Origin: a virus
Lineage: Duplodnaviria > Heunggongvirae > Uroviricota > Caudoviricetes
Length of the DNA: 21,234 nt
IMG/VR virus record: IMGVR_UViG_2537562190_000017
Strand: one strand, 5' to 3'
Shown: piece by piece, positions 400-1,427 of the stretch
How positions within the stretch are numbered: position 1 is the stretch's first letter
Layout of the letters: the number at the start of each line of letters is the position of its first letter
Notes under the pieces: generated by a model
Told to the model about the DNA's origin: nothing
Databases searched by the model: none
The model's input: only the letters and a program-made list of their open reading frames with translations
Made by a program: the position numbers and the translations under genes

Positions 400-529
400 C
401 GGTTATTTCCTTTTAGTGATGAACCCTGCGCACAGGAATAACCAGCCCAAAGAGGGTTAACCAGACCACTGCCGGTTATCCACCAGGGCTCATCCTGAAA
501 GGTTCTTTGGTTTATTTACGCTTGTGCGA

Positions 530-563
530 AGCGCAGAAATGACAAAGGCACCATTACGGTGCC
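530..563 (-). terminator. Putative intrinsic terminator downstream of the lysis genes
   Basis: Hairpin GGCACC-attac-GGTGCC (547-563); on the minus strand it is followed by TTTGTCATTTCTG. No ORF was found by manual translation between 400 and 673. Confidence 0.4.
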
Positions 564-673
564 TCTTCATGAAACAATCTTGTTGACTTTATTCACTTAC
601 ATTTTGCCAGTTCGCAGGATTTCGTGTTATCTGCCCGCGTTGGCCAACGTCATTTTTCAGCAAAATATTCTGC

Positions 674-1207
674 TTACCTGTCGATACCCCAGCATGCCAG
701 CGCACTCTCCTGGTCACGTCTTGATACCTGACCGTAACAGTTGTTTGAACGGATACGGCAGTCTCTGCCACCGTCCTTAATCCACCAGCGAATCGCCTCA
801 CACGCTCCCCTGCGATCGCCTGCATTAAGCCGCTTATAAAACGTCGACGGGAAACACTTACCGGGGCCAATGTTATAGGGGCAAAATGACGCGATACCTG
901 CTTTTTGTGGCTCGGTCAGTGGAACTTTTATATTACGCTCCACCCATGCCAGCGCCTTATCCCGTTCGATAGCGTTAACCCGGTCGCATTTTTCCTTCGA
1001 CAGCTTCATGCCAGGAATCACAGGCTTACCATCCACCCGGGTGGCTCCACGGCAGATGGTCCAGATACCCGCACCATCACGGTATGCCGTGGTGTGGTTA
1101 CCTTCCTTTTCATCCAGAAACTGGTCGAGGATTTCAGGCGCAGAAGCACCTGCGGCAATCAGCGCCAGAACGGCAGCCGATAAACCATAGCGGAGTTTCC
1201 TGCTCAT
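674..1207 (-). CDS. SAR endolysin (T4-lysozyme-type muramidase with N-terminal signal-anchor-release segment), phage-21 R-like
   Basis: 177 aa; hydrophobic Ala/Gly-rich N-terminus (LSAAVLALIAAGASAP), then an E-x8-D-x5-T catalytic-triad pattern (EKEGNHTTAYRDGAGIWT). Lies immediately downstream of the holin. Confidence 0.9.
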   Translation of the reverse strand: MSRKLRYGLSAAVLALIAAGASAPEILDQFLDEKEGNHTTAYRDGAGIWTICRGATRVDGKPVIPGMKLSKEKCDRVNAIERDKALAWVERNIKVPLTEPQKAGIASFCPYNIGPGKCFPSTFYKRLNAGDRRGACEAIRWWIKDGGRDCRIRSNNCYGQVSRRDQESALACWGIDR

Positions 1208-1211
1208 CAGC

Positions 1212-1427
1212 TTACTCTCCCCGTGCCGCCTTACGCCGGTCTTCTTTAATCTTGAAATACAGGTTCGTCAGATATGTCAGCAGCCCAAACAGCAGACTCC
1301 CCAGCACGCCTATTGCCGCCCACTGAGACGGGGAAACCCTGTCCAGCAACTGCAGGAACCAGTAGCCCGTTCCCACCGCTGACGTGGTGTATGACACACC
1401 TGTTGTGATTTTTTCCATCTGGTTCAT
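1212..1427 (-). CDS. Class II holin / pinholin (S21-like) with dual-start motif
   Basis: [71 protein letters not shown]; close to the phage 21 S pinholin as recalled. Met1 and Met4 give the holin/antiholin dual start. GGGAGG SD upstream of ATG at 1427. The track ORF 1212..1502 is an upstream extension. Confidence 0.85.

Follow-up and report, generated by a model that had tools for sequence, protein, structure and literature searches.

Rz/Rz1 spanin genes very likely follow the lysis cassette of a 933W-type Escherichia coli prophage just beyond the end of a draft contig

The lysis region of the Shiga toxin (Stx) phage 933W (NC_000924) has been annotated with the genes S, R, ant, Rz, Rz1 and bor since its original deposition. 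The layout S, R, ant, Rz/Rz1, with holin, endolysin, antirepressor and spanin genes in this order, has been known since then and is standard for Stx-type prophages. In a survey of 279 Stx phages, a signal-anchor-release (SAR) endolysin and a pinholin were predicted in about 99%, and an Rz pham was present in 277 of the 279 (PMC8136144). In phage 434 the spanin genes directly abut R, and so they do in phage 21 according to the preliminary description of the DNA analyzed here. The late region of P22 (13, 19, 15/Rz1, rha) contains a canonical (lambda-like) holin and endolysin instead of a pinholin and a SAR endolysin. The DNA in question is a viral stretch of 21,234 nucleotides (IMG/VR record IMGVR_UViG_2537562190_000017), in the following called the window, for which a pinholin plus SAR endolysin cassette without a spanin gene, perhaps lost, had been described. 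We conclude with high confidence that this region contains the lysis cassette that is standard for the late operon of a 933W-type lambdoid E. coli prophage, Stx-phage-like and in this case stx-negative, and that Rz/Rz1 have been cut off from it by a contig end. The apparent absence of the spanin is an artefact of the end of a draft contig, and the spanin genes very likely lie a few hundred bases beyond it.

Within the window there is indeed no spanin gene, as had been observed before: tblastn revealed no homolog of Rz or Rz1 (best E 0.72), and a lipobox scan of all open reading frames (ORFs) of 25-250 amino acids (aa) revealed no credible lipoprotein. Four weak lipobox matches were rejected, being antisense or devoid of a transmembrane domain (TMD); the longer one, ORF 5765..6085, has no C-terminal TMD. 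An antirepressor gene had been overlooked, which starts at position 399 with AAAGGAAATAACCG ahead and runs off the left edge. The features at and beyond this edge, the latter in the related locus L011 (GCA_002461375.1), are the following:

Window 1..399, minus strand: 5' part (133 codons) of ant, antirepressor gene with a P22_AR_N domain, cut by the end of the window and contig.
L011 9712..10179, same strand as the cassette: Rz, PHROG 'Rz-like spanin' (E 1.6e-75), N-terminal TMD at residues 1-25.
L011 9932..10117, same strand: Rz1, embedded in the +1 frame of Rz with an offset of 220 nt, PHROG match with E 1.7e-31.

Over 18,282 nt the window and the contig AEZT02000011.1 of L261 (GCA_000215225.2) are 100% identical, and this contig breaks off (contig coordinate 1) only 2 nt beyond the first position of the window. 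Therefore, the window edge is a physical contig end inside ant. Up to this edge, L011 and the window differ by four mismatches and no gaps over 9,387 nt (99.957% identity), and L011 then continues. Beyond the edge it contains, on the same strand, the remainder of a 189-aa ant, a 48-aa ORF, Rz (155 aa) and the embedded Rz1 (61 aa). The start of Rz is 325 bp past the window edge, and Rz1 has the lipoprotein signal MKLCVLMLPLVVSAC with the lipobox VVSAC. The copies in L001 match the Pfam families Rz (PF03245, E 2.5e-49) and Rz1 (PF06085, E 1e-20). The ant codons in the window encode a protein part with 98.5% identity over 133 aa to the Ant of L011 (tblastn), and a full-length Ant homolog matches PF10547 (E 8.5e-45) and contains the domains P22_AR_N and ORF11CD3. 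The 3' part of ant contains GCTGACATGAAACGGGATAAAAAC.

The same succession was found wherever it could be assessed. The order S, R, ant, Rz was seen in 933W, ArgO145, the Stx2d phage Stx2_112808 (LC567830), O103:H2 12009 and O157:H7 YB14-1. In all eight contexts with an identical NanS-p esterase, a gene call downstream of R matches Rz or Rz1. In a phage collection, 252 records contain the gap behind R together with the 5' segment of ant, and in 237 of them gap, ant and Rz form one contiguous megablast match, while the others have a more diverged Rz. Among the IMG/VR matches listed, R lies directly upstream of the conserved leader of ant (see below) in 29 contexts; Rz follows in all 26 that could be assessed, and the other three are cut by the end of the locus. 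All close relatives thus carry Rz/Rz1, and the prophage does not belong with the spanin-less phages. The spanin expected from these comparisons is an ordinary two-component Rz/Rz1 pair, neither unimolecular nor lost. The preliminary description had offered three explanations, a spanin elsewhere, a unimolecular type outside of the window, and loss; the first one was right in that the genes lie outside of the window, but the relatives have two-component genes, and the other two explanations are not supported. It had also named the finding that would speak against its headline, a spanin gene of the same operon directly to the left of the window, and exactly this is present in every close relative.

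Several points weigh against our conclusion. The spanin genes are not visible on the source molecule, whose contig stops inside ant, and the claim for this strain is thus carried over from the sequences of near-identical relatives. In addition, a strong terminator precedes S and a hairpin lies between R and ant, and the co-transcription of Rz/Rz1 with the cassette thus depends on an assumed readthrough mediated by Q. Lastly, a prophage that is stx-negative and carries an insertion sequence (IS) could be defective in other ways, and its lysis is predicted from its genes. The spanin genes might, accordingly, really have been lost through a deletion or a rearrangement adjacent to the left edge of the window, which would make the outer-membrane step of lysis defective, and decayed genes do occur in this region of some relatives, e.g., a frameshifted ant or an IS between S and R. 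However, contig ends in draft genomes of Shiga toxin-producing E. coli typically fall in repeats that are shared by several lambdoid prophages, and the stretch from ant to Rz is such a repeat: 368 phage records match the region, and the matching E. coli genomes have a median of 2-3 matching places. As Rz/Rz1 are present in every assessable relative, including one that is 99.96% identical up to the edge, a real loss is very improbable.

The frameshift in ant was observed in the Stx2d phage Stx2_112808, O103:H2 12009 and O157:H7 YB14-1, and it is caused by one extra G (CTTGGTGC instead of CTTGTGC; window 1..10, minus strand, versus L001 8090..8101 and L003). The gene is a pseudogene in RefSeq for the two chromosomes, and the frame is intact in the window, ArgO145 and L011. 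An ant gene has also been reported for the Stx phage Phi24B; according to a figure legend it precedes the qut site and belongs to the early-expressed genes (PMC3064807). As far as this legend tells, it is an early gene and not located between R and Rz, and it was rejected as a counterpart of the late-region ant. The conserved 48-aa ORF between ant and Rz (L011 9558..9704, about 170-320 bp past the left edge) encodes a very hydrophobic protein of PHROG 4906, a family of unknown function, and has no homolog in the window (tblastn). A C-terminal remnant of it abuts Rz in the UTAK-6 prophage, which has no ant, and it is unannotated in 933W and ArgO145.

On the minus strand, the complete region would start with a terminator, followed by S, R, an accessory module composed of a terminator-like hairpin, a structured leader and ant, then the 48-aa membrane ORF, and at last Rz with the embedded Rz1. 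The first part of it lies in the window:

1459..1495, minus strand: strong intrinsic terminator located immediately before the holin gene, with a stem of 13 bp and a U run behind it, from a terminator scan (L001 6606..6635).
1212..1427, minus strand: holin S, 71 aa, phage-21 class II (pinholin) family (PF04971, PHROG).
674..1207, minus strand: SAR endolysin R, 177 aa, GH24 phage lysozyme (PF00959, PHROG, PDB).
589..870, minus strand: shadow ORF, 93 codons, TTG start, in the +1 frame of R, not a gene.

The holin covers positions 1-63 of the 64 positions of the Pfam profile 'Bacteriophage P21 holin S' (PF04971; E 7e-33, 112.8 bits versus a cut-off of 26) and also matches the PHROG family 'holin' (E 2e-40). 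Its identity is 98.6% with S of 933W and 91.5% with the phage 434 holin, and the latter is labeled 'pinholin; 65/68 residue identity to S pinholin of phage 933W' in the curated record of that phage. Phage 21, phage 434 and DLP12 have holins of this family, and with S21-68 of phage 21 the holin shares the start D/E-K-I, the aromatic patch YWFLQW (YWFLQL in the window) and the loop LDQVSPSQ (LDRVSPSQ in the window). Only residues 33-60 (TMD2) are above the hydropathy threshold, and they display a G-xxx-S-xxx-G face. The segment at the N-terminus, with many Gly, Ser and Thr residues, stays below the threshold, as expected for the releasable TMD1 of a pinholin. At the level of the sequence the protein thus has the two segments of a pinholin, a weak TMD1 and a strong TMD2. 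It is presumed to be one, and small depolarizing heptameric channels would be expected from its family membership and from the pairing with a SAR endolysin.

A dual start had been proposed for the holin gene, by analogy to phage 21. Two in-frame Met codons do exist (N-terminus M1-N-Q-M4), of which the second one at 1416..1418 would give a form of 68 aa, and GGAGG is located 6 nt ahead of the first ATG. However, the extension of three residues is M-N-Q in the window and M-Y-Q in 933W and UTAK-6, and contains no Lys or Arg, and the dual start may be only a formal one. The antiholins S107 and S21-71 are characterized by an additional positive charge (PMC9636201), and in contrast to the window holin the extension of S21-71 has a basic residue. 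In phage 434 position 1 of the holin is an Ile, and therefore a dual start does not exist there. The terminator upstream of the holin gene folds with -20.4 kcal/mol (z -4.07), and in the curated record of phage 434 a terminator is annotated at the same position, before its pinholin gene. Therefore, the expression of the lysis genes should depend on antitermination by Q.

The endolysin gene starts four bases past the stop codon of the holin gene, and its product matches PF00959 (E 6e-25) and the PHROG endolysin family (E 1e-63). It aligns with the phage-21 lysozyme R21 (PDB 3HDE; residues 12-174, E 1.3e-16) and with RrrD of DLP12 (4ZPU; E 2.7e-16), and is thus only distantly related to R21 (E 1e-16). 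The catalytic triad E35-8aa-D44-5aa-T50 is readable in the translation, aligns with EG...D...T of R21 and has the same spacing. The N-terminus MSRKLRYGLSAAVLALIAAGASAPE consists of a basic stretch and a hydrophobic segment rich in Ala, Gly and Ser (44% G/A/S/T in residues 4-28), and in the alignment with full-length R21 (3HDE, from residue 8 onward) it is matched to the SAR domain. The domain contains no Cys, which we take as a sign of the R21 type rather than of the P1 Lyz type. The earlier SAR endolysin call is in agreement with all of these features, i.e., the GH24 domain, the spacing of the triad and the basic, weakly hydrophobic N-terminus. Judged from its sequence, R is a signal-anchor-release endolysin, and Sec-dependent tethering and release upon loss of the proton-motive force are predicted; in the curated record of phage 434 the endolysin of that phage is labeled 'SAR endolysin'. 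In L007 (12947..14160, CP157141), an IS3-family transposase gene lies between the holin and endolysin genes, and thus real decay of the cassette occurs in some strains.

An alternative to a missing Rz would be a different outer-membrane device inside the window, such as a unimolecular spanin, a disruptin-like peptide or the product of ORF 589..870. In a survey, 91 of 677 phages (about 13%) were without a recognizable spanin (PMC6139136). Furthermore, the position of ORF 589..870 in the +1 frame of R resembles that of Rz1 in Rz, and some phage records list this ORF as a gene (PHROG 30041 and 34797). However, no ORF of the window combines a lipobox with a C-terminal TMD. ORF 589..870 starts with TTG, and neither a TMD nor a lipobox was found in it. 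It is not conserved where R is: in three relatives with an R of about 90% identity, 39-47 of 45-59 substitutions are at third codon positions of R, which are second positions of the ORF, and therefore its protein varies at many sites, while the R protein hardly varies. In addition, the frame is broken by an internal stop in L010 and by an indel in L012. An embedded Rz1-like gene was thus rejected and the PHROG matches were regarded as over-annotation, and the substitution pattern and the interruptions bear out the earlier view that the ORF is an out-of-frame shadow. A 26-aa ORF at 490..570 is not preserved in the gap of 933W. As the relatives carry canonical Rz/Rz1, no substitute is needed, and a device of this kind is, of the two alternatives considered, the one with the lesser chance, a very slight one.

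The gap between R and ant (400..673) is 274 bp long, and the longest minus-strand ORF in it that does not overlap the endolysin gene is the one of 26 aa. A stretch of this length without long ORFs is usual for non-coding DNA and no statistical anomaly. The preliminary description had reported only a terminator hairpin in the gap; this hairpin is present, but so are a small GC hairpin and a leader of about 95 nt:

588..673, minus strand: 86 nt past the stop codon of R, common to relatives with and without ant.
534..566, minus strand: terminator-like hairpin, GC-rich stem of 9-10 bp, tail UUUGUCAUUUCUG (-17.4 kcal/mol, z -2.85).
518..534, minus strand: small conserved hairpin GCGCUUCGCACAAGCGU, general form GCGCnUCnCACGCGC.
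409..506, minus strand: conserved leader of about 95 nt, AGAACCUUUCAGGAUGA...GGUUCAUCACUAAAAGG, forming a long hairpin.

A mosaic junction is located at about 588: many matches to E. coli prophages end there (query 20647, which is window 588), and the alignment with the UTAK-6 prophage, which has no ant, diverges at the same point. Relatives without ant have a different, clear terminator at the same relative position as the terminator-like hairpin, of which one stem pair is broken in 933W. The gap of 933W contains a different variant of the leader and is only about 80% identical to that of the window, with indels and a length difference of 3 nt, and the 26-aa ORF is not kept there. Otherwise, 933W has the same order and spacing as the prophage of the window (S of 216 bp, R of 534 bp, a gap of about 270 bp, ant of 570 bp, Rz with embedded Rz1), DNA identity in the region is about 91-94%, and the upstream genes are the same (NanS-p esterase, DUF1378, DUF826). 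In contrast to 933W, the closest relatives of the window continue with other types of packaging and head genes, and no bor is annotated after Rz. The difference to phage 434, and apparently to phage 21, is the ant module between R and the spanin genes. We read the insertion of ant as one instance of a portable module composed of a terminator, a leader and an antirepressor-like gene. The unusual spacing between R and Rz is explained by this insertion, and no loss of function is needed.

The leader has a broad distribution. At least 120 IMG/VR contigs match the exact pattern of the class found in the window (class 1), and the 139 instances among the IMG/VR matches listed and the loci examined comprise 37 sequence variants with lengths of 84-91 nt. 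Because of this length variation the element is not coding. Some variants of the leader would encode a hydrophobic peptide of 25 aa (MTLEDTGLAIGAFLWAGFLCDKVHH), but this reading was rejected for length differences of 1-2 nt, by which the frame is lost; a stop follows after 5 codons in the variant of the window and after 19 in that of 933W. The leader lies 14-18 nt ahead of the start codons of at least 11 unrelated gene families (Ant, KilA-N-like, Rha/Bro-like, HNH-type). In the contexts compared, a terminator, whose sequence varies, and the GCGC hairpin always stand before it, and this small hairpin is kept in 12 different genomic contexts. The 274-nt gap of the window folds with a z of -4.6, the consensus structure of the leader has 31 pairs, and its 3' arm …CACUAAAAGG covers the Shine-Dalgarno sequence of ant.

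P22 contains a diverged copy of the same module at the end of its lysis cassette, with a terminator, the GCGC hairpin, a long leader hairpin and an antirepressor-like gene. In ST104 and P22 the module follows Rz/Rz1, whereas it is located between R and Rz in Stx-type phages. The second, diverged class of leaders (P22 rha type) is also present in at least 120 IMG/VR contigs, with a downstream ATG at a distance of 20-24 nt, and among the matches listed Rz lies directly upstream in 82 of the 104 assessable instances. The P22 version also folds into a long hairpin. A comparison of the two classes by eye yielded weak signs of compensation, a change from G-C to A-U and a paired insertion (CCUUG/CAAGG to CCUUUG/CAAAGG), but a joint alignment (MAFFT and RNAalifold) did not recover the outer stem and had shifted 5' arms. 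A comparison with Rfam 15 (E <= 1) revealed no matching family, c4, IsrK and sar included, for the gap or leader of the window and of five other loci. Lysis genes and antirepressors are not mentioned in two publications on prophage small RNAs (sRNAs), PMC4104026 and the preprint on the Pas sRNA. Tentatively, and with less than even confidence, we suggest that the leader may be an undescribed cis-regulatory RNA, which together with the terminator and the GC hairpin marks a 'variable antirepressor slot' in the late operons of lambdoid and P22-like phages. Other sites of the module are L016 1501..1612 and L140 (P22) 39470..39640. In P22 the annotated GTG start of rha (L140 39575..40180) lies inside the leader-like hairpin. 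An ATG 22 codons further downstream, with GAAGG ahead, matches the start of homologs elsewhere and looks like the likelier start.

The remainder of the window has the organization of a lambdoid prophage, from int (20104..21234) via the immunity, replication and nin-like regions to Q, a methylase gene, the NanS-p esterase gene, DUF1378, DUF826 and the cassette with S, R and ant:

6175..6870: Q, late antiterminator gene upstream of the cassette.
4556..5614: methylase gene.
2106..4052: NanS-p esterase gene.

Unlike 933W, the window has no stx genes upstream of the cassette; the interval between the methylase and esterase genes (4053..4555), the usual place in Stx phages, contains neither stx genes nor tRNA genes. 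The prophage is thus an stx-negative relative of Stx2 phages. The interval contains a match to the sRNA STnc100 (4276..4476, minus strand, 148 bits). The IS of about 1.1 kb is located at 9312..10406 beside a hok/sok locus, encodes an rve-type transposase of 348 aa (ORF 9369..10415, plus strand), and lies next to a sok match at 10401..10568 (minus strand). It is absent from the otherwise 99.9%-identical contig L262, and the contig of L011 breaks there. A weak Rfam match to Esr41, an sRNA of enterohemorrhagic E. coli, at 2029..2106 (plus strand; 28 bits, gathering score 102, E 0.011) is probably due to chance; it is located between the genes for the esterase and DUF1378 and runs antisense to the late operon.

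The course of lysis can be inferred from the paradigms of lambda and phage 21. Q would antiterminate the late transcript, which would then read through the strong terminator before S (1459..1495) and through the weaker hairpin after R (534..566). The holin would accumulate, trigger and depolarize the inner membrane, and the membrane-tethered endolysin would then be released, refolded and activated. Finally, Rz/Rz1 would disrupt the outer membrane and thereby complete lysis. No sigma-70-like promoter was found between the esterase and terminase genes, and hence none for ant. Therefore, ant and Rz/Rz1 should share the late transcript.

The locus is an example of an apparent gene loss that is produced by a contig end, and it cautions that the physical end of a sequence should be checked before a gene at its edge is called absent. 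The lysis cassette is of importance in Stx-type prophages, because it governs the release of the phage and, in stx-positive relatives, also the release of the toxin. The portable leader upstream of ant is the only item described here that is of possible research value. Should it prove to be a real regulatory RNA, the control of variable antirepressor-like genes in late operons would be explained, and also their exchange precisely at the start codon.

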